Below are positions 1 to 30,758 of a DNA stretch of 32,000 nucleotides, piece by piece. Position 1 is the stretch's first letter. Each line of letters starts with the position of its first letter. The notes under the pieces are model-generated. The model saw only the letters and a program-made list of their open reading frames with translations, was not told the origin of the DNA and searched no databases. Source of the stretch: Moraxella nasovis (GTDB lineage Bacteria; Pseudomonadota; Gammaproteobacteria; Pseudomonadales; Moraxellaceae). Where the stretch lies: assembly GCF_022701215.1 (NCBI RefSeq), contig NZ_CP089976.1, positions 810,001 through 842,000 on the forward strand, written 5' to 3'. A program made the position numbers and the translations under genes.

Positions 1-631
1 TACCACCGCCAAATGATGCTTGATTTTGACGCTTGATGGCAGCAAGATGATGACCGATGAAATTTGCCACATCAGCAGGCACTTCTTTATCGCTTAATAT
101 TTTGGTGAATTGGTCTTCAGCAGCATTAAACTGCTTATCGGCAGATAACACCACCGCCAAGCGAAGTCGCACAAGATTTGCCTGATGATTGTGCGATAAG
201 ACATTGCGATACTCACGAATCGCCCAAGGCAAATTGCCTTTTTTTTCATAAGACACTCCCCTTGCCCACGACAATGCGATTTGGTCTTGTTGGTCTTTGG
301 GGAGCTGTTCATAATAAGGCAACAAAAAAACCACATCATCGTCATGCTGATACATGAGTGCCGCCGCCATCGCACGGTGGATAAGCGTGGGGTAATTTAC
401 CAGTTCATCAGCACTGATTGACAGCGTCTGCTCTGCCGTCATCGTCTTATCTAGATGAACTTGTGGCAAGGTGGGCGGCGGTTGTATGTGGGTTAATTGG
501 CGGTCTTGGATACGCTTATCATCTTGTTCAGTGATAATGGTCTTGTCATTGGCAAATGCAGATTTGCTTAGGGTGATGCTCAGCAATAATATGCCAAGCG
601 TTGCCATATTGGGTTTAAAAGAGTTATTCAT
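1..631 (-). CDS. Secreted TPR-like repeat protein, N-terminal part (gene runs off the window start); possibly Slam/DUF560-type outer-membrane protein
   Basis: Not in the ORF track because it is truncated by the window edge. The minus frame from ATG at 631 is open to position 1. Hand translation: MNNSFKPNMATLGILLLSITLSKSAFA/NDKT..., a Sec signal peptide with an AxA site, followed by helical repeat-like sequence (ALSWARGVSYEKKGNLPWAIREYRNVL...). The Slam assignment is only an impression. Confidence 0.55.
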   Translation of the reverse strand, partial: MNNSFKPNMATLGILLLSITLSKSAFANDKTIITEQDDKRIQDRQLTHIQPPPTLPQVHLDKTMTAEQTLSISADELVNYPTLIHRAMAAALMYQHDDDVVFLLPYYEQLPKDQQDQIALSWARGVSYEKKGNLPWAIREYRNVLSHNHQANLVRLRLAVVLSADKQFNAAEDQFTKILSDKEVPADVANFIGHHLAAIKRQNQASFGGG

Positions 632-2517: not shown

Positions 2518-4267
2518 CTTTTTTATTGATGATAAGTGCTAGAATAAACATCATCATGCCTGACAACAACAACGTGATAAATTTTAATAAAAAAGGTATG
2601 GCAAGCGAATAATATAACTGCCACAATAAAAACATTAATAAAAATACCGATAATACAGTAATTGCTTTATCTTTTTGATAAATGCCATACGCCAAAATCA
2701 ATAACATCACACCGATATTGATATAGCCAAGCACCATCAGCATGATTGTTAAACCTAAAAATAACGCTATTGTCGTCAGATGATGTTTTGATGTATCTAG
2801 CTGATATAATTGATAAAATACGATCAATAAAATCGGCAATACCACATAATCCATATTGGCATGAAAATTAAGCAATCCAATCTCATCAAAACTGCTTACC
2901 GCCGCAAGCACAGCCAATACACCTATCATGGTAATTGCCAATGGTTTTTTTAAATACTCAATCCTGCGTTGATATAATGCAACCATCGGTAATGTACCAA
3001 CAACCATGAGCAGTGCTTGGCTGATTGGCGTATCATCAAATATCTGCATGATGTCATAACTTATCATGCCATACCACGCAAGCATTTGTAATGCTAGATA
3101 CAACCAATGCACCCGAAGATAAATCAGCACACCAAGCAATACTGTCTGTAAGGGTAGCTGTATCCAAAAATTATTTAACCCAAAGTATTTATCCACCCCA
3201 ATATAAGACGCCACTTGACCCATCGCAAATAACGCATAACCTAAATGACGCAAATAAGTATGATGATAATATTGTTTTAAAATGGCGATACCGACAATGA
3301 TAAACAACAGCCCTGTGATAAGTGGCAAGTTATCAATATCAAACAACATAAACAATGAGATAAACCAAGCAGAAAACCAGCCGCCAATCCCAAAGGCAAT
3401 CGCATGATAGTTGGCATTTGGAAATAGGCATAAAATCAAATAACCCATCGCCCCAAACCACAACATCGCCATAAAACCAATGGCAAAAAGCTTATCAGTA
3501 AAGACGTGAACGCACAGCCCCACAAATAACGCTGTCCCAAAACCAATCAAAGATAGACTACTAATCCACGCATTAGCACATCGTTTGGCATACCACCACA
3601 TTATCACAAGTGCCAAAAAACCCGTGAAATTTATGTAACTTATTGACTGATGAAAGTTAATACTAACCGCACCAATGCTTGCAATGACTGCACACTCTAA
3701 CACAAATAACCAAAGTAGCGAGCGATACCACCAACTGGCAACAAAAAACTGTGCCAACGTAAGCAGTGCAAGAGCAGTTATCAGCACGCCAAAATCCATA
3801 TTTTGGCTTGTCAGCATAAGCCAAAACGCCACTTGTGAGACCACAGCCATCAGCACAAAAATGCCGATATTTTGCCGATAACACCACGGCAGCAGTAAAA
3901 CTGTCCAAATCATAAACAACCAAAAACTATCCGCCCCACTTTGATACACTTGTCCGATGACCGCAAGCGATAAACCTATCATCGCTCCGCTTATTGTCTC
4001 AAAGGTATTTTTAAGTAGCTTTACTGTGCTGATTTTTGTCGTATCATCTTTTGGCGACACCATCAACGACAATAGAGCAAACAGCACCATCAATATCATT
4101 GGCAAAGCAAGTTTGATGGCATTTGGCATCATAAACCAATTTGCCCCCACCAAATATAACAGCGACACCGCCACAAGCGACAAGCCAATCGCCATCAGAT
4201 AGCGAATAAATTTGGGGTGCGTGAGCGGATAAGGATTGGCAGATGGATAAGGTTGATTTGCGTGCAT
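2498..4267 (-). CDS. Polytopic inner-membrane protein, DUF4401/DUF2157-like
   Basis: 589 aa, almost entirely hydrophobic helices. Its position directly upstream of a GDYXXLXY gene is the usual partner arrangement for these DUF families. Confidence 0.65.
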   Translation of the reverse strand: MHANQPYPSANPYPLTHPKFIRYLMAIGLSLVAVSLLYLVGANWFMMPNAIKLALPMILMVLFALLSLMVSPKDDTTKISTVKLLKNTFETISGAMIGLSLAVIGQVYQSGADSFWLFMIWTVLLLPWCYRQNIGIFVLMAVVSQVAFWLMLTSQNMDFGVLITALALLTLAQFFVASWWYRSLLWLFVLECAVIASIGAVSINFHQSISYINFTGFLALVIMWWYAKRCANAWISSLSLIGFGTALFVGLCVHVFTDKLFAIGFMAMLWFGAMGYLILCLFPNANYHAIAFGIGGWFSAWFISLFMLFDIDNLPLITGLLFIIVGIAILKQYYHHTYLRHLGYALFAMGQVASYIGVDKYFGLNNFWIQLPLQTVLLGVLIYLRVHWLYLALQMLAWYGMISYDIMQIFDDTPISQALLMVVGTLPMVALYQRRIEYLKKPLAITMIGVLAVLAAVSSFDEIGLLNFHANMDYVVLPILLIVFYQLYQLDTSKHHLTTIALFLGLTIMLMVLGYINIGVMLLILAYGIYQKDKAITVLSVFLLMFLLWQLYYSLAIPFLLKFITLLLSGMMMFILALIINKKGDCHVA

Positions 4268-4425: not shown

Positions 4426-5415
4426 ATGCCAACCTTTGATCATCTTATTTTTATCGGACGCTTTGAGCCTTTTCATCACGGTCATGAATTTGTTGTGCGT
4501 GAAGCCTTAAAGCACACCGATCATGTCATCTTACTAATCGGCTCAGCAAACAGCCCACGCACCATCAAAAACCCATTTAACTTTGATGAACGCCAAGCGA
4601 TGATTTTAAAGGCATTTAGTGATGAAATCTCTCGTAAAATCACCTGCTTGCCCATTGATGACACCTTATATAATGACCATAAATGGCTACAAAACACTCG
4701 CCAAGCAGTTGCAAGCGTTACCCAAGCAGGTGATCGCATTGGCGTTATCGGACACCAAAAAGACGACAGCTCTTACTATCTTTCCTTATTTCCAGATTGG
4801 GAGTTTATCGCTTTGCCAAGCTTTGAAGGGCTATCTGCCACGCCTTTGCGTCAGCGTTATTTTGGTCAAGGCGTCATTGATGAACGTATGCCACAATCAT
4901 CGCAAGCATTTTTGGCAGATTTCATCAGCACGCCTGCCTACGCCAACTTACAAGCTGAATATCGTCACATCTTAGCCTACCAAAAAGCGTGGGAAGACGC
5001 CCCCTATCCACCTGTGTTTGTTACCGCTGATATGCTTGTGGTACAAAGTGGGCATATCTTATTAGTAGAGCGTGGCGGTGATTATGGACGTGGACTTTGG
5101 GCGATGGCAGGCGGATTTTTGGATAAAGATGAGACGCTACACGAATGCGGACTGCGTGAACTTGCAGAAGAAACCAGCTTACACCTTGATAAGAGTAGCT
5201 TTAAGCACTCGCACACTTTCGATGCACCTGATCGATCCGCTCGTGGGCGTACGGTGACGACAGTGTTTTATCATGAACTTCAAGGTAGTAGCTTGCCTGA
5301 CGTGGTGGGTGCAGATGACGCTACCCAAGCGTTTTGGCTACCCTTAAATAAGCTTGATGGCAAAAAAATGTTTGAAGACCATTATAGTATCATCACAAAA
5401 ATGCTCGGCATTTAG
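4426..5415 (+). CDS. nadM: Bifunctional NMN adenylyltransferase / Nudix (ADP-ribose) hydrolase NadM
   Basis: N-terminal nucleotidyltransferase motif GRFEPFHHGH. C-terminal Nudix box GGFLDKDETLHECGLRELAEETSL. 329 aa, typical of the NadM-Nudix fusions in Acinetobacter and Francisella. Confidence 0.85.
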   Translation: MPTFDHLIFIGRFEPFHHGHEFVVREALKHTDHVILLIGSANSPRTIKNPFNFDERQAMILKAFSDEISRKITCLPIDDTLYNDHKWLQNTRQAVASVTQAGDRIGVIGHQKDDSSYYLSLFPDWEFIALPSFEGLSATPLRQRYFGQGVIDERMPQSSQAFLADFISTPAYANLQAEYRHILAYQKAWEDAPYPPVFVTADMLVVQSGHILLVERGGDYGRGLWAMAGGFLDKDETLHECGLRELAEETSLHLDKSSFKHSHTFDAPDRSARGRTVTTVFYHELQGSSLPDVVGADDATQAFWLPLNKLDGKKMFEDHYSIITKMLGI

Positions 5416-5430
5416 CCACAACACTCAAAC

Positions 5431-5460
5431 AAAAACCGCTTAGCAGTCTAAGCGGTTTTT
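5431..5460. terminator. Bidirectional Rho-independent terminator (nadM / yidB-like convergent pair)
   Basis: AAAAACCGCTTAG-cagt-CTAAGCGGTTTTT, a perfect 13-bp stem with A and T tails. Confidence 0.8.
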
Positions 5461-5470
5461 ATGCTACTGA

Positions 5471-6181
5471 TTACAGCTTTTGTAAAATCTCAGAAATTTC
5501 TTGATTGGCTCTGCCCTCATCTTCTAAGTTACCGCGTGGGCTTAGTTCATCCATCACTTGGGGGAGTAAATCTGCGATGCCTTGACATACTTCATTTTGG
5601 CTTGCCCCTGTTTTTTCACAGACGCTGTTGATTTCATCATTGCCAAATAATCTTTTGATGTCGCCTATATCAATGCCGTCATTATCTCGGTCAATGCTAA
5701 GCCAAGACTGAGCTTTATTGCCAAGCCCATTACTATCAAACTTCGACAGCACGCCTGATAATCCGCCACTTTTTTGGATAAATCCAAGCACAACGGGTAA
5801 TAAAGCCACAAGTAAGGTCGATTTATTAAAGCTACCACGACCCCCCATCTGCGAACCAATCACCGAACCTAATACAGAGCCTAGATCGTTTGGTGATTTA
5901 GACTGACCGCCAAGCAGACCACCTAGAACGTCGCCTAATTGACCGCCTGACTGGCGTCCACCACCTAGCACACCGCCTAAGATATCACCAAGCCCGCCTT
6001 GGCTGGTGCGTGACTTTTGCTGACGGCTGTCGTTATCACCTAAGACATCGCCAAAAATACCGCCCAATGCACCGCCAATTCCGCTATTTTGGCTATTTTT
6101 TTGCGTATGACGGTTATCATCGCTAATGGCGTTTTTGACCACTTGGGTAACAATGTTTTGTAATAAACTCATGATGTTCAT
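5471..6181 (-). CDS. YidB-like (DUF937) protein with Gly-rich repeats
   Basis: Central GDxLGG-type glycine repeats. The C-terminal region (AQSWLS...GDIKRLFG...LLPQVMDELSPRGNL) resembles the YidB/DUF937 C-terminus. Confidence 0.65.
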   Translation of the reverse strand: MNIMSLLQNIVTQVVKNAISDDNRHTQKNSQNSGIGGALGGIFGDVLGDNDSRQQKSRTSQGGLGDILGGVLGGGRQSGGQLGDVLGGLLGGQSKSPNDLGSVLGSVIGSQMGGRGSFNKSTLLVALLPVVLGFIQKSGGLSGVLSKFDSNGLGNKAQSWLSIDRDNDGIDIGDIKRLFGNDEINSVCEKTGASQNEVCQGIADLLPQVMDELSPRGNLEDEGRANQEISEILQKL

Positions 6182-7815: not shown

Positions 7816-10800
7816 TCAACGCAAGAATGCACGAGCATTGCGGAATAAACGTAACCACGCTCCATCTTGTTGCCATGCGTCAGGCTTCCAAGAATGGTTC
7901 ACCGCACGCAAGGTACGCTCTGGGTGTGGCATCATCAAAGTAACTCGCCCATCACTACTACACACGCCTGTGATGCCTTGTGGCGAACCATTTGGGTTGA
8001 GTGGATAATGCTCGGTCGGATTGCCTTGACTGTCCACATAACGCAAGGCGATTTGACCATGTAGGCTAAGCTCATTGATTGATTTGTCGGTCAAATCCGC
8101 ATAGCCTTCGCCATGTGCCACCGCAACTGGCAAAATACTGTCTTGCATGCCTTTTAGTAGCACAGACTTGGTGCGCTCTACTTGCACATTGACCGTGCGT
8201 GCTTCAAAGCGTGCCGATTGGTTTTGGATAAAACGTGGGAAATGGTCAGCCCCCACCATCAGCTCTTTTAATTGGCTCATCATCTGACAGCCATTACACA
8301 CGCCCAAGGCGAATGTCTCTTGGCGATGAAAGAATCTGGCAAACTGCATACGCAATTCATCATGGAATAATACCGAGTTTGCCCAGCCAGAGCCTGCCCC
8401 AAGCACATCGCCATAGCTAAATCCACCGCACGCCACCAAGCCTTCAAAATCACGCAAGTTAATGCGTCCGCTCATCAAATCGCTCATATGCACGTCAATG
8501 GCTTCAAAGCCTGCACGCACAAAGCCTGCCGCCATTTCAAGATGTCCATTCACGCCTTGCTCACGCAAAATCGCCACTTTTGGTTGGCTTGTGCGACTAT
8601 TCACATAAGGAGCTTCTACCGCCAAATCCAGCTCATAATTCGCCTGTGCAATCAGTCCATGATGGCTAGGGTCGCTGATGAGTGCAAACTCTTGGTCGGC
8701 ACACACAGGATTATCACGCAGTCTTGCGATGGCATGGCTAACCTTGCTCCATTGTTCTTGTAATTGAGCACGGCTAAATTGGGTGGTTTGGCTTGGGGTA
8801 ATGATACTTAATGTGTCTTGATTAGCCCCGCCTTTTGGTGTGGCATAAGTTTGACCAATGTCGCTTAGCATATCCGCCACCTGATGGGTCTTGGCAAGCT
8901 CAATGAATGTCGCCACATCATCTGCAAGCACCTGCACGACCGCCCCCAACTCTTCGGCGAACAGCTGTCCTAGTAGATTGTCATCAGATAGGTTTAATTC
9001 CACTTTTAAGCGACTGGCAAACTGCATCTCTGCCACACTTGCCACCAAACCACCATCACTAATATCATGATAAGCACGGATAAGCCCTGCCCCACTTGCC
9101 GCTTGAATGAAAGCGAACAGATTGCCAAGGTCAGACGCATTATCCACATCAGGGCAATCATCGCCCAGCTGACTTAATGTCTGAGCAAAAATTGAACCAC
9201 CCAAGCGGTATTTGCCTTTGGATAAATCAAGGCGGAATAATTTTGCGTCTGTATTGACAAGCTCTGGCGTGATGGTCTTGGCGACATCTTGTACAGGGGC
9301 AAAGGCTGTGATGATAAGACTCATCGGCGAGCTGACGGTCTTCTCCACGCCATCATCTTGCCAGTTTGCCTTCATAGACAAGCTGTCTTTGCCCACAGGA
9401 ATGGTAATGCCAAGTGCAGGGCATAGCTCTTCGCCAATGGCATACACTGCATCATACAGTGCTTCATCTTCACGCTCATCGCCACACGCTGCCATCCAGT
9501 TAGCAGACAAGGTAACATCTGACACCTTATTGATACGAGCAGACGCAATATTCGTCAAGGCTTCGCCCACCGCAAGCCGTGCAGATGCTTTGGGGCTGAT
9601 GAGTGCAACTGGCGTACGCTCACCCATCGCCATCGCCTCGCCAGTATCTGCAAGCAGTCCTGTCATCGTAACTGCACAGTCCGCCACAGGCACTTGATAA
9701 GGTCCGACATACTGGTCTTGGGTAACCATGCCTGTGATAGAACGGTCGCCAATGCTAATCAAAAACGACTTACTGGCAACGGTTGGGTGTCTTAGCACAT
9801 CTGTAATACTGGTCGCCAAATCCACCCCAGAGACATCAAGCGAACGCAAAGGATTGTCCTTGCGATGAAACGCACGCTTCATTTTGGGCGTGCCACCTAA
9901 TAGCACCTGCATGGGCATATCCACAGGCTGTTCTGGCAGCAGGCTGTCGTCTACTTTTAGTTCACGCACCGCCGTTGCTATGCCCAAGATGGCATACGGA
10001 CACCGCTCACGAGCACAGATTTCATCAAATAATTTTTCATTTTGGGGTGAGATGGCAAGCACATAACGCTCTTGGGCTTCGTTGGACCAGATTGCCATTG
10101 GCGACATACCTTGTTCTAGCGAAGGTACTTTACGCAAATTAAGATGAGCCCCAAGCTCATGGTCGTCCACAAGCTCTGGCATGGCATTGGACAGCCCACC
10201 TGCTCCCACGTCATGGATAGAGACGATTGGGTTATTATCATCGCCATCTTTTGCCATCGCCCAGCAGGTGTCAATCACTTCTTGACAGCGACGTTCCATC
10301 TCAGCATTATCACGTTGTACAGACGCAAAATCCAAGCCTTCGTCAAGCTCACCACTATCCACCGAGCTTGCCGCACCACCACCCAAACCAATCTGCATGG
10401 CAGGACCGCCAAGCACGATGAGCAAATCGCCTTGTTGAATGGCGTTTTTTTGTACCAAATTACGCTTGATGTTACCATAGCCCCCTGCAATCATAATCGG
10501 CTTATGATAGCCACGCATTTGGCTGCCGTCTTGGTCGGCTGACGTGTCTAGCTCAAAGCTACGAAAATAACCATTTAAATTTGGGCGACCAAATTCATTG
10601 GCAAAGGCTGCCGACCCCAGCGGTCCGTCAATCATAATCTCCAAAGCACTTGCCATACGCTCAGGCTTGCCATAGTCCTTGGTTGATACCTTGCCTGATG
10701 TTTCCCATTTTTCTAGCATATTTGGCAGGTGCAAATGCGACACACTAAATCCTGCCAAGCCTGCTTTTGGCTTGCCACCACGCCCTGTCGCCCCTTCATC

Positions 10801-28282: not shown

Positions 28283-28396
28283 GTTTTTACCTAAAAATTT
28301 TGGTTGATTATTTTTTTATGTACACTATTGTGTACACATAAGTTCATAACTTAATAACTTGATGTCGCATTATACAGATAACGCAACAAAAAAGCT

Positions 28397-28507
28397 AAAA
28401 AAATGAAAATAATGCTTGATTATCTAATTATAATTAGATATAATAAGCACATATACAGAGCAAAAGCTCGACAATCAACCCAAAGCTACAGGAGCTTACA
28501 AATGAAA
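28397..28507 (+). repeat. 111-bp direct repeat, copy A (promoter + operator + 5'UTR + RBS + first two codons)
   Basis: Letter-by-letter identical to 29281-29391: AAAAAAATGAAAATAATGCTTGATTATCTAATTATAATTAGATATAATAAGCACATATACAGAGCAAAAGCTCGACAATCAACCCAAAGCTACAGGAGCTTACAAATGAAA. Confidence 0.95.
28416..28444 (+). promoter_or_regulatory. Strong sigma70-type promoter A with an embedded 20-bp palindromic operator
   Basis: TTGATT (28416-28421), 17-nt spacer, perfect TATAAT (28439-28444). The palindrome TATCTAATT-AT-AATTAGATA (28421-28440) spans the whole spacer and touches both hexamers. Confidence 0.7.
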
Positions 28508-28786
28508 GTAGTACATATTGATAAATTCGGATTTGGTGATTTTTTTCATGACAACAAAATGAGCGGAGGTACTGCAAAAAACGGTACTCGATATGCAGAA
28601 GTTGTTGTTAATTCTGAAATTTACCACACTTTAAAAAACGGCTTGACAATCATCGGTACTCATAAAAAAAATGGTAGTACTAGAACGTATGAGTTTAACG
28701 GTGAACACGGCAGGGAATTTTACAACTATCACGCTCAGCTTGTTGTAAGATTTTATGGAAAAATGACAGACAAAAAATTAGCTTAA
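28502..28786 (+). CDS. Small hypothetical protein (94 aa), first gene of cassette A; anti-CRISPR/anti-defence candidate
   Basis: AGGAG (28490-28494) lies 7 nt before the ATG at 28502. The longer ORF-track version starts upstream of the -35 element and is unlikely. No family recognised. Confidence 0.65.
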   Translation: MKVVHIDKFGFGDFFHDNKMSGGTAKNGTRYAEVVVNSEIYHTLKNGLTIIGTHKKNGSTRTYEFNGEHGREFYNYHAQLVVRFYGKMTDKKLA

Positions 28787-28833
28787 TTGCGATTTTTGAA
28801 AAACCCAAAAAAAAAAAATTTTCTAGGTCATGT

Positions 28834-29106
28834 ATGAACAATAACTATGTATTCAATCGTTTATTAACAACGCTCAATTTACACCGTAACCACGACATGA
28901 CCGCCAAAATTTTTAAGCTTGGTGGCACGCACTCTGAAATAACAAAGTCGCTAGTTAAGTCATGGCGTATCAGCGATGAACAAAACAGGCTGTATCGCCC
29001 CATGCTAGACAAGACACTAATATCGTTTTTTGACGGCTTACAACAAGCAAGCAAAGATGAGTTGATAGATATTAATTGCGATATTGTTATAAGAATAAAG
29101 GAGTAA
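28834..29106 (+). CDS. DUF1456 (YehS-like) single-domain protein, 90 aa
   Basis: The pattern N-x-[VI]-[FL]..L...L......DM...IFKLGG......I..W....E......P...L..FFDGL follows the repeat unit of E. coli YehS as I recall it. Confidence 0.55.
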   Translation: MNNNYVFNRLLTTLNLHRNHDMTAKIFKLGGTHSEITKSLVKSWRISDEQNRLYRPMLDKTLISFFDGLQQASKDELIDINCDIVIRIKE

Positions 29107-29111
29107 AAAAA

Positions 29112-29303
29112 ATGGCAAACACTACCAAAGCTCAAGCAAGAGCAGTTAAGCAATATCAACAGACTAGCGAAAGTTGGACTGTACGCACAAAAGACGAACA
29201 AAAGATGCAAATGCTTAAACAAGCAAAAGCAACGGGCAATTTGTCAAAAATATTTTTTGAATTTTTAGAAGAATATTTTAAAAAAAATGAAAATAATGCT
29301 TGA
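29112..29303 (+). CDS. Ribbon-helix-helix (CopG/Arc-like) DNA-binding protein, 63 aa; candidate repressor of the duplicated promoters
   Basis: AAGGAG (29098-29103) lies 8 nt before the ATG at 29112. Beta-strand-like SWTVRTKDEQ is followed by two helices (KMQMLKQAKATG, NLSKIFFEFLEEYF), the classic RHH layout. Confidence 0.6.
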   Translation: MANTTKAQARAVKQYQQTSESWTVRTKDEQKMQMLKQAKATGNLSKIFFEFLEEYFKKNENNA

Positions 29304-29391
29304 TTATCTAATTATAATTAGATATAATAAGCACATATACAGAGCAAAAGCTCGACAATCAACCCAAAGCTACAGGAGCTTACAAATGAAA
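29281..29391 (+). repeat. 111-bp direct repeat, copy B
   Basis: Identical to 28397-28507, offset 884 bp. Its first 23 nt also encode the C-terminus and stop codon of the RHH gene. Confidence 0.95.
29300..29328 (+). promoter_or_regulatory. Promoter B, identical to promoter A, with the same palindromic operator (29305-29324)
   Basis: Same sequence as promoter A. The TGA stop of the upstream RHH gene (29301-29303) lies inside the -35 hexamer. Confidence 0.7.
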
Positions 29392-29754
29392 AAATCTGAA
29401 ATGAAAGCAATCAAAGAATGTCGTGAGAATATCATCGGCTTTCTACACCCCAATGAAATGCAAACAATCAACGCGATTTTGGGGATTGATGTTGATAAGC
29501 TAGATTTTTATACTGTTTGTGATTTAACTATCAAAAATTATGCAGATAAGAAAATCACAAATAAAAAAGCAAGTGAAGTGTTTGACATTCTTTCACAAGC
29601 AAATAAGCAATTTAAAATAGAGCGTTATCGCTATGACAAGTCTACAAAGACAATCTATGAATTTGATGAAGAACACGATGCGTATTTATTCTTAGAAAAT
29701 AGCGGACACGGAAGATATGTTCACTTAGTTACAGTTAACGGTATGTATATCTAG
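29386..29754 (+). CDS. Small hypothetical protein (122 aa), sole gene of cassette B; anti-CRISPR candidate
   Basis: Same AGGAG-7nt-ATG as cassette A and followed by a terminator. Acidic/basic mixed small protein with no enzymatic motifs. Size is in the range of the Moraxella AcrIF13/AcrIF14 proteins (from memory). Confidence 0.65.
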   Translation: MKKSEMKAIKECRENIIGFLHPNEMQTINAILGIDVDKLDFYTVCDLTIKNYADKKITNKKASEVFDILSQANKQFKIERYRYDKSTKTIYEFDEEHDAYLFLENSGHGRYVHLVTVNGMYI

Positions 29755-29803
29755 TGTTGATTTTCTAGATTATAAAATACACATAAGACTTAGATTTTTA
29801 AAG

Positions 29804-29827
29804 AAAACCGCCCACGCTGGCGGTTTT
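29804..29827 (+). terminator. Intrinsic terminator after the cassette B gene
   Basis: AAAACCGCC-cacgct-GGCGGTTTT hairpin 50 nt after the stop codon. Confidence 0.6.
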
Positions 29828-29910
29828 CAAGACTAAAACAAGATTACGAATATCACTCAATGAACTATAAAATCTTGAACTAAAAGTAAAAGTATTTGAT
29901 GAAATTAAAC

Positions 29911-29939
29911 TTGACAAATCAAATTTATTTTAATAAGAT
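29911..29939 (+). promoter_or_regulatory. Promoter of the CRISPR-repeat-mimic RNA
   Basis: Perfect -35 TTGACA (29911-29916), 17-nt spacer, TAAGAT (29934-29939). The predicted transcription start is about 7-8 nt before the first repeat. Confidence 0.55.
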
Positions 29940-29953
29940 AGTTCATGTAGTTA

Positions 29954-30127
29954 TTACGCCACTGCAAAAAAGTGGCTTAGAAAGTTCTACAATTGTTAAA
30001 AGGGTTCACCACCGCTTAGGTGGCTTAGAAAATTGTATAATTTTAAAATATGTTTACCACCGCTTAGGTGGCTTAGAAAGTTATATGATTGTAAAAAAGG
30101 TTTACCACTGCAGAAGTGGCTTAGAAA
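29954..30127 (+). CRISPR. Orphan array of four type I-F-like CRISPR repeats (28 nt; first copy a degenerate 30 nt) separated by 20-nt mutually homologous linkers; candidate RNA anti-CRISPR or mini-array
   Basis: R1 29954-29983 TTACGCCACTGCAAAAAAGTGGCTTAGAAA. R2 30004-30031 GTTCACCACCGCTTAGGTGGCTTAGAAA. R3 30052-30079 GTTTACCACCGCTTAGGTGGCTTAGAAA. R4 30100-30127 GTTTACCACTGCAGAAGTGGCTTAGAAA. Same architecture as I-F repeats: GTTCA flank, 5-bp stem, 5-nt loop, CTTAGAAA handle. The stem covaries between copies. Confidence 0.6.
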
Positions 30128-30161
30128 ATTATATGATTGTAAATCAGTAATAACTACCAAT

Positions 30162-30184
30162 AAACCCCCAAACTTTGGGGGTTT
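30162..30184. terminator. Strong bidirectional terminator shared by the repeat RNA (+) and the endolysin gene (-)
   Basis: AAACCCCCAA-act-TTGGGGGTTT followed by ATTTTT. Lies 5 nt beyond the endolysin stop on the other strand. Confidence 0.8.
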
Positions 30185-30188
30185 ATTT

Positions 30189-30758
30189 TTACTTAAGCCC
30201 TACTAGATACGTTGTCCGACCGCCACGCTTAACAGCTGTTAGAAACTGACTTCGCTGGTCACCAGCATTTGACTTGTAGCCTAAATGTATCCATGTGCTA
30301 TTTTCGTCAGGGAATTCTAAAATAAGCTGGTCAAACTTTTTTAGCTTGTCTTTTAAAAAGTTAGCAATTTGTCGTGTTGTGCCAAATTCAGGACACTTAA
30401 AGTCAATTGCTCGCCCAAAAGTGTGTGCTGATGTATTAGACCCACCCACCGCACGATTGACATTGGGCGAACGATAACCGCTAGATATATGAATGGGTTT
30501 TCCAAGCAGGTCTCTGACAGGTTGCCACAGATTTACGCTACTATCTATCAAGTTTTGCAATACCCCAGCATCAGGGATATTATCAATGCCACGAGCTTTT
30601 GCGGTATTGCTGTGTAATAGCTCGTTTAAGCTGATGTTTTGCGTGATTTTAATCGTCTTGCCTACAGCTAAAGCGTGCTTTAATGCACGCTGTGACTGCA
30701 CCCCCCACACGCCGTCAGCAGGCGTGTTTATTTGTTCTTGAATGTGTTTGATGTTCAC
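30189..30758 (-). CDS. Phage endolysin, peptidase M15 family (zinc D-Ala-D-Ala carboxypeptidase-like, Peptidase_M15_3)
   Basis: SSGYRSPNVNRAVGGSNTSAHTFGRAIDF (H..D metal ligands) and the distal WIHLGY histidine. GTG start overlaps the upstream stop (GTGA). Confidence 0.8.
   Translation of the reverse strand: MNIKHIQEQINTPADGVWGVQSQRALKHALAVGKTIKITQNISLNELLHSNTAKARGIDNIPDAGVLQNLIDSSVNLWQPVRDLLGKPIHISSGYRSPNVNRAVGGSNTSAHTFGRAIDFKCPEFGTTRQIANFLKDKLKKFDQLILEFPDENSTWIHLGYKSNAGDQRSQFLTAVKRGGRTTYLVGLK

Follow-up and report, generated by a model that had tools for sequence, protein, structure and literature searches.

A 32,000-nucleotide (nt) stretch of the Moraxella nasovis genome (contig NZ_CP089976.1, positions 810,001 to 842,000; hereafter the window) contains two identical copies of a 111-bp promoter module. 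Copy 1 lies ahead of three small open reading frames (ORFs A, B and C), and copy 2 lies ahead of a fourth, ORF D, that encodes a homologue of the anti-CRISPR (Acr) protein AcrIF14. A first-pass annotation of the window had described the duplication and proposed that the module is a portable expression cassette into which different payload genes are plugged. Here we describe the two operons, compare them with related loci and argue that the repeat most likely represents two copies of a repressor-regulated prophage anti-CRISPR promoter, with the product of ORF C as the candidate repressor of both.

Two identical promoter modules at a prophage end

A repeat search and inspection of the sequence both found the two modules (Table 1) to be identical at 111 of 111 positions, with a spacing of 884 bp; the duplication had been annotated correctly, coordinates included. 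The identity stops after ATGAAA, at the second codon of the downstream gene, and the DNA flanking the two copies shows no relatedness on either side. As had also been seen at first pass, the coding sequences diverge beyond this point, giving unrelated proteins of 94 and 122 amino acids (aa). A perfect match of this length cannot have arisen by chance. In the collections searched, the exact module is known from this locus alone: blastn of positions 28283–30200 against 50,697 phage records returned no match, and a 20-bp palindrome within the module, used as a 20-mer, had no match in IMG/VR and only three in the GTDB representative genomes (596 Gb), all of them in Firmicutes and put down to chance.

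Each copy contains a predicted strong σ70 promoter, located by consensus scan, with a palindromic putative operator in its 17-nt spacer. The promoter is followed by a 5′ untranslated region (5′UTR) of about 50 nt and by AGGAG, read in both copies, 7 nt ahead of the start codon (AGGAG at 28490–28494 and ATG at 28502 in copy 1; ATG at 29386 in copy 2), in agreement with the promoter, 5′UTR and ribosome-binding site first proposed for the module. The palindrome within the promoter spacer, which had not been spelled out before, is composed of the half-sites TATCTAAT and ATTAGATA. At up to three mismatches it occurs in the window at these two sites only, against an expectation of 0.00 from shuffled sequences. 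Folding of the 5′UTR gave two small hairpins with weak z-scores (−2.2 and −1.6), and we claim no riboregulator.

The first cargo of operon 1, ORF A, has no match in Pfam, PHROG, NCBIfam or the Protein Data Bank (PDB); it is 55–59% identical to the C-terminal part of 133–134-aa metagenomic proteins, which add an N-terminal domain. At the other end of the operon, the TGA stop codon of ORF C falls within the −35 box of the second promoter (P2). ORF D is, by its sequence, a full-length AcrIF14 homologue: phmmer against the PDB aligned its residues 1–121 to residues 1–123 of AcrIF14 (7ecv, 7jzz and 7du0; E = 3.7e-28), and it is 40–43% identical to the homologues encoded by the Moraxella catarrhalis prophages Mcat5, Mcat7 and Mcat8. 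AcrIF14 itself was defined from the Mcat5 protein AKI27193.1 (PMC6538845), and activity against type I-F CRISPR–Cas is predicted for ORF D. Exact-protein look-ups of ORF A (in its short form and in a longer form considered below), ORF B, ORF C and ORF D returned no record, and a search of IMG/VR for loci related through the AcrIF14 homologue found none.

Positions 1–28282 hold ordinary host genes, including purL, relA/spoT, fpg, mscL and typA/bipA, and the G+C content falls from about 43% to 31–36% past typA. To the right of the two operons, a minus-strand peptidase M15 endolysin gene, with which the structural and lysis genes of an Mcat-like prophage begin, and a tail-fibre-like gene have their closest relatives in the M. 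catarrhalis Mcat prophages. Because host genes lie to the left and Mcat-like genes to the right, the plus-strand genes ORF A to ORF D can be placed at the prophage's left end, with the attachment region on one side of them and the lysis gene on the other. In Mcat5, Mcat7 and Mcat8, an acrIF14 homologue occupies the same place beside the endolysin gene.

Table 1. Features of the two promoter modules, their operons and the adjoining region, in window coordinates.
Feature	Position	Strand	Description
Module copy 1	28397..28507	+	A-rich upstream stretch, −35, operator, −10, 5′UTR, Shine–Dalgarno (SD) sequence, ATGAAA; 100% match to copy 2
Promoter P1 (predicted)	28416..28444	+	TTGATT-17-TATAAT, 10/12 consensus matches; aligns with the Mcat5, Mcat7 and Mcat8 acr-locus promoters
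Operator 1 (putative)	28421..28440		Perfect 20-bp palindrome TATCTAATTATAATTAGATA; spans the spacer, overlaps the −35 and −10 hexamers
ORF A	28502..28786	+	94 aa, LU293_04100; first cargo of operon 1, candidate anti-defence protein
ORF B	28834..29106	+	90 aa, DUF1456 (PF07308, E = 4.7e-7, 30.4 bits, cut-off 27); second gene of operon 1
ORF C	29112..29303	+	63 aa, LU293_04110; last gene of operon 1, candidate Aca-type repressor
Module copy 2	29281..29391	+	Opens with 23 nt that form the last 7 codons plus stop codon of ORF C
Promoter P2 (predicted)	29300..29328	+	TTGATT-17-TATAAT, 10/12 consensus matches
Operator 2 (putative)	29305..29324		Identical 20-bp palindrome TATCTAATTATAATTAGATA
ORF D, acrIF14 homologue	29386..29754	+	122 aa; phmmer against PDB
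Terminator-like hairpin	29804..29827	+	3′ of acrIF14, AAAACCGCC-CACGCT-GGCGGTTTT; by inspection, not flagged by the terminator scan, short T run
Promoter-like site	29911..29939	+	TTGACA-17-TAAGAT, upstream of the mini-array
Mini-array	29956..30147	+	Four 28-nt type I-F repeat look-alikes, each with a 20-nt 'spacer'; 48-bp period
Bidirectional intrinsic terminator	30159..30187		Serves the mini-array (+) and the endolysin gene (−)
Peptidase M15 endolysin	30189..30758	−	PF08291 (E = 7.8e-20); phrog_894 (E = 5.4e-56); ~60% identity to Mcat homologues

Recurrence of the operator beside ORF C homologues

Homologues of ORF C were gathered by an exhaustive HMMER search and then by a profile search, their contigs were fetched, and the metagenome collection was scanned with the operator plus TATA for related loci. 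The family comprises about 42 clusters, nearly all from metagenome or sequencing-run assemblies (ENA, Logan); in the profile search none of these had a Pfam domain, and the only named source was the M. nasovis protein. Homologues with 53–68% identity occur in five further locus types (L007–L010; L141/L142/L145/L148/L151/L155/L158; L171/L172; L173; and L174–L181), in each of which they occupy the last-gene position of the operon. Phage backbones and cargo differ among these types.

Wherever sequence was present, TATCTAAT-N4-ATTAGATA filled the spacer of both promoters, that of the operon and the next one, which lies against or across the stop codon of ORF C. Across 12 promoters in six locus types, the window included, the half-sites are kept, and it is the centre and the flanks that diverge; the central bases read TTATAA, TCATGA or TACGGA, the last in both copies of L173. 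ORF B homologues precede ORF C homologues in several of these loci and are absent from four locus types (L007, L171, L173 and L174), so that ORF C is the only protein always found with the operator. A search of IMG/VR with the loose pattern TCTAATNATNATTAGA gave chance matches, with no ORF C homologue among the matches listed.

The genes behind these promoters are diverse. No fewer than 12 unrelated small ORFs, all lacking a Pfam family, stand first behind them, and the variable cargo expected of a portable module was thus found in the related loci. That notion holds for homologous units that share the operator and not for the 111-bp sequence as such, which was found only here. The first cargo proteins of L141, L142, L145, L148, L151, L155 and L158, and of L171 at 5266–5730, have an N-terminal segment in common, about 35 aa long (MTKSELFKAAHKLAK..IQAGDNY.ATF.L.LK), that is joined to unrelated C-terminal domains; ORF A is one such domain without the segment, which could serve as a handle, either for a common function or for recombination.

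Two further observations concern the operator and one of the contigs. On unrelated metagenome contigs from gut and other sources (L139, L144, L159, L160 and L170), TTGAC(T/A)-TCTAATTATAATTAGAA-TATAAT, preceded by CTAACAATAATTAG, contains the same core palindrome with no ORF C homologue, and these promoters probably belong to a separate repressor–operator system. The phage contig that carries the L171 locus also encodes, on the minus strand at 8903–9649, a 248-aa protein with a recorded Pfam match to Csf1 (PF27781, a type IV CRISPR-associated family).

The layout of the window has a counterpart in the acr locus of Mcat5 (acrIF13-acrVA2-...-acrIF14), described by Marino et al. 2018 and tabulated in PMC6538845. 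Both belong to the same prophage family, lie between attachment site and endolysin gene, and follow the order promoter, cargo, small gene, promoter, acrIF14; in both, the promoter modules are duplicated, and copy 1 includes the last codons of the small gene. In Mcat5, P1 drives acrIF13 (7veh, E = 1.9e-76), acrVA2 (7ci1, E = 6.7e-127) and a 66-aa gene, and P2 drives acrIF14. The two loci differ in the cargo of operon 1, in the spacer sequence and in the similarity of the modules, which is 86% in Mcat5 and 100% in the window, and the small gene of Mcat5 is unrelated to ORF C (no BLASTP or hhalign match).

Alignment of the promoters from the window, Mcat5, Mcat7, Mcat8 and metagenomic relatives revealed a common scaffold: upstream DNA rich in A/T, the −35 sequence (A/T)TGCTTG, TATAAT and a 5′UTR that in most cases opens with a hairpin. 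The 17-nt spacer, by contrast, varies from group to group. In Mcat8, a gene for Aca2/YdiL (PF08965, E = 1.9e-9), an anti-CRISPR-associated (Aca) protein, is followed by TTGACT-TGTTCGCAATCACGAAC-TATAAT ahead of acrIF14, and the spacer TGTTCGCAATCACGAAC holds TTCG-N6-CGAA, the published core of the Aca2 operator IR1, at its published position (PMC6765145). Because it carries this core, the spacer can be regarded as the seat of the cognate Aca operator in this promoter family. On these comparisons, the operator is swapped together with the type of regulator (ORF C, Aca2, Mcat5 and Mcat7 types) on a conserved chassis; of the portability first proposed, what remains is a portable promoter chassis, with the operator exchanged along with its regulator.

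The IR1 operator of phage ZF40 (Birkholz et al. 2019, PMC6765145) resembles that of the window in that a palindrome lies between −35 and −10 of a consensus-like promoter (TTGCTT-17-TATAAT in ZF40). The proteins and sites themselves differ: ORF C has no PF08965 match, and the operator in the window is unrelated to TTCG-N6-CGAA, so that this pair is not of the Aca2/YdiL helix–turn–helix (HTH) type. In Mcat7 (L005, 3880–6244), the promoter spacer of the acrIF14 homologue holds another palindrome (TATGACTTTAAAAGTCATA). Downstream, on the same strand, are an integrase gene and the gene for a 205-aa protein in which a weak DUF1456-like segment is combined with an HTH/MqsA-like domain; judging from this protein, DUF1456 proteins may be linked to regulation.

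A hairpin near the mRNA 5′ end (CAUCAAGAC...CUUGAUG) is kept in Moraxella acr 5′UTRs irrespective of regulator type (L004 ~2225–2245 and ~3944–3964; L005 ~3933–3960; L006 ~619–640; L007 4594–4624; L173 4191–4223). The window retains only a short GAGC-AAAA-GCUC remnant of it at 28458–28469, plus a small hairpin around the SD sequence. The conserved hairpin could serve in mRNA stabilisation or protein binding. Aca2 is known to bind RNA in the 5′UTR.

A candidate repressor of both promoters

We propose that the repeat consists of two copies of a repressor-regulated prophage anti-CRISPR promoter and that ORF C most likely binds both operators, a reading to which we assign a probability of roughly 0.7. 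Instead of the generic expression cassette envisaged at first pass, the module would be a repressor-controlled acr promoter, with an AcrIF14 homologue as the payload of copy 2. Copy 1 would transcribe ORF A, ORF B and ORF C, and copy 2, which starts within the last codons of ORF C, would transcribe the acrIF14 homologue. On infection, P1 and P2 would both fire at full strength; accumulating ORF C would then bind both operators, where they overlap the −35 and −10 hexamers, and shut off its own operon together with acrIF14. In a lysogen, ORF C would keep operon 1 and acrIF14 low. ORF A and ORF B would have anti-defence roles.

The logic of such repression is established for Aca1. Autorepression of the acr operon has been shown for Aca2 (PMC6765145), and the layout of two promoters under one regulator is ancestral and already known for Aca proteins, with control of the own and the neighbouring operon reported for Aca11 and Aca13 (PMC13551039). 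Aca14 from Pasteurella multocida, a ribbon–helix–helix (RHH) protein whose AT-rich inverted repeat lies over the −10 box, represses its own and the downstream operon in electrophoretic mobility shift and reporter assays (Feussner et al., Nucleic Acids Research 2026, PMC13551039). ORF C resembles Aca14 as a small non-HTH protein encoded last in an anti-defence operon, and the two systems have in common an AT-rich inverted repeat over the core promoter and a near-identical site in the promoter of the operon that follows directly. The likeness is functional only, and we do not claim membership of the same family: Aca14 is recognised as an RHH protein, whereas no RHH domain was detected in ORF C; the operator in the window fills the entire −35/−10 spacer; and the promoters of the window are identical over 111 bp, whereas those of Aca14 are similar merely at the inverted repeat.

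In an AlphaFold2 model, ORF C has a helix at residues 6–19, an extended segment at ESWTVRT and helices at 29–41 and 44–62. The invariant ESWTVRT is the most conserved stretch of the protein and lies between helices, where the ribbon of an RHH protein would be expected. The N-terminal two-thirds are net basic, and ORF C, which is small and basic, is probably dimeric. Its modelled secondary structure looks RHH-like, with the β-α-α order behind an N-terminal helix, a fit without statistical support; no RHH family matched any of nine members of the ORF C family at E values up to 10.

Several results weigh against ORF C as the repressor. The confidence of the model is modest (pLDDT, the predicted local distance difference test score, of 67–69), and Pfam, NCBIfam, PDB profile search and Foldseek recognised no DNA-binding domain in the protein. 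An hhalign comparison with a small hand-made RHH alignment gave the right register at a probability of only 0.9%. In addition, the most divergent homologue (P0004, locus L011), which is found near an ArdA-like gene, shows only a half-site nearby.

A protein without a recognisable DNA-binding domain could instead be cargo or an Acr, in which case the modules would still be regulated acr promoters, with the operator bound by ORF B, by the main prophage repressor or by a host factor. ORF B homologues do accompany ORF C in several loci, and the DUF1456-like segment of the Mcat7 protein beside acrIF14 is fused to an HTH domain. Yet the operator is kept in L007, L171, L173 and L174, which have ORF C homologues and lack ORF B homologues, and the backbones of these loci differ, which makes a common backbone or host repressor unlikely. 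ORF C is, moreover, always the last gene ahead of P2, the canonical position of an aca gene. We consider binding by another protein unlikely and retain ORF C as the candidate.

The perfect identity of the two modules can be set against the other two-promoter loci, in which P1 and P2 are usually 54–72% identical, with 77% in L173 and 86% in Mcat5; the between-locus mean is 67%. Because these loci lie mostly at background, the identity in the window points to a recent duplication or conversion superimposed on a two-promoter design of older date, and the recent duplication or recombination first suggested for the repeat is upheld as its best reading. General concerted evolution of P1 and P2 was considered and rejected, as only the window (100% over 111 bp), Mcat5 (86%) and L173 (77%) stand above the mean. 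Copy 2 would have been the donor, and two details fit: the final seven codons of ORF C, with its stop codon, recur in copy 1, which has no such gene ahead of it, a kind of 'fossil' also present in Mcat5, and ORF A, which begins at the repeat end, matches only the C-terminal domain of its 133–134-aa homologues. As predicted from the repeat structure, recombination between the copies could delete ORF A to ORF C.

Such traces raise the question of whether the repeat is a mere scar of a recent cassette insertion or duplication, with a palindrome that has no repressor and constitutive promoters of the 'moron' type. Perfect identity, sharp borders, the 23-nt fossil of the ORF C 3′ end and the start of ORF A exactly at the repeat end, without the N-terminal domain of its homologues, are all compatible with a scar. 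A perfect 20-bp palindrome exactly between −35 and −10, however, is unexpected for one, as are half-sites kept in twelve promoters of six locus types while their centres and flanks diverge, and Mcat8 has a validated type of Aca2 operator at the same spacer position. We judge this explanation improbable.

That the two copies encode a common N-terminal peptide is very improbable. Translation from in-frame ATGs at 28403 and 29287 would yield proteins of 127 and 155 aa that are alike in their first 33 residues, and both long ORFs are open. We rejected this reading because these ATGs have no SD sequence and lie upstream of the −35 box, and because the AcrIF14 alignment begins at residue 1 of the short form; AGGAG-7-ATG serves the short forms, and the NCBI annotation gives the 94-aa form, the long form not being on record. 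An assembly artefact or a generic repeated extragenic host element, for which only the perfect identity speaks, is hardly credible, because the source contig is 2.03 Mb long, the repeat is short with each copy amid unique genes, and the 20-mer had only the three chance Firmicutes matches in 596 Gb and was absent from the viral collection.

Systems of this kind are already known, both as acr loci and as Aca control over two adjacent operons. New elements are a family of candidate regulators for which the operator is defined, a set of candidate anti-defence genes that follow this operator, and the clear picture of operator swapping. ORF C and its site form a concrete candidate regulator–operator pair for Moraxella acr loci, which were described without an aca gene. 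Used as bait, the operator has so far singled out no fewer than 12 small unannotated genes as candidate inhibitors of type I-F, type V-A and other defences. A discovery in archaeal viruses (PMC11065993) resembles this approach in that a conserved promoter or regulatory motif flags many small, mutually unrelated anti-defence genes and can serve as bait for them, and differs in the domain of life, the motif and the regulator (Aca8). The comparison also bears on how such loci are constructed, with a swappable operator on a conserved chassis and whole promoter modules duplicated within a locus, perfectly so in the window.

The adjacent mini-array and minor features of the locus

Between the acrIF14 homologue and the endolysin gene lies a mini-array of type I-F CRISPR repeat look-alikes (for example, GTTCACCACCGCTTAGGTGGCTTAGAAA). 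The Rfam model CRISPR-DR4 scored 34.9, 31.6 and 28.9 bits on it, against a gathering score of 35 (E = 1.2e-5 to 8.5e-4). Its repeats show compensatory changes in the stem with the CUUAGAAA handle intact, and Tandem Repeats Finder reported a period of 48 with 3.6 copies. The 20-nt spacers resemble one another; searched against the window at up to five mismatches, they had no match except among themselves. The window contains no CRISPR–Cas locus of M. nasovis. Repeat look-alikes with their own promoter and terminator were also seen at L141 244–330 (+), where the unit consists of a repeat, a 31-nt spacer and a degenerate repeat, at L145 ~95–152 (+), at L171 6811–6900 (+) and at L173 ~4830–4990 (−), so that the association of acr loci with repeat mimics recurs.

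By analogy, the mini-array is a candidate RNA anti-CRISPR (Racr/Cracr). It resembles the published Racr (PMC10651486) and Cracr arrays (bioRxiv 10.1101/2024.10.29.618823) as a set of phage-borne repeat mimics in an acr locus with its own promoter and terminator. Short spacers are a further point of comparison, at 20 nt in the mini-array, while CracrIF2 is a 49-nt RNA. Among type I-F Cracrs, those published occur with acrIF24, and the mini-array differs from them in its link to acrIF14; this link suggests possible cooperation between protein and RNA anti-CRISPRs outside the published association.

A further-reaching proposal, which we put forward tentatively and at somewhat less than even odds, joins these elements. 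ORF C would found a new non-HTH Aca family confined to Moraxella-like prophages, and TATCTAAT-N4-ATTAGATA would be the mark of a mobile anti-defence unit with two promoters. ORF A, the DUF1456 protein and about ten other unannotated first genes would be new anti-CRISPR or anti-defence proteins, the mini-array would be an RNA anti-CRISPR acting with AcrIF14, and the shared promoter, 5′UTR and ATG would provide the homology for cargo exchange between phages.

Two minor features were noted on the host side of the modules. Just upstream of typA and about 76 bp ahead of module copy 1, positions 28309–28320 (TATTTTTTTATG) match the annotated attL of Mcat8 (TATTTTTTTAAG) at 11 of 12 positions; this may be the left end of the prophage, on weak evidence given the low complexity of the sequence. 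An imperfect palindrome, TTATGTACACTATTGTGTACACATAAG, lies at 28316–28343 between the start of typA and the module, and may be part of the typA promoter region or of the attachment site.

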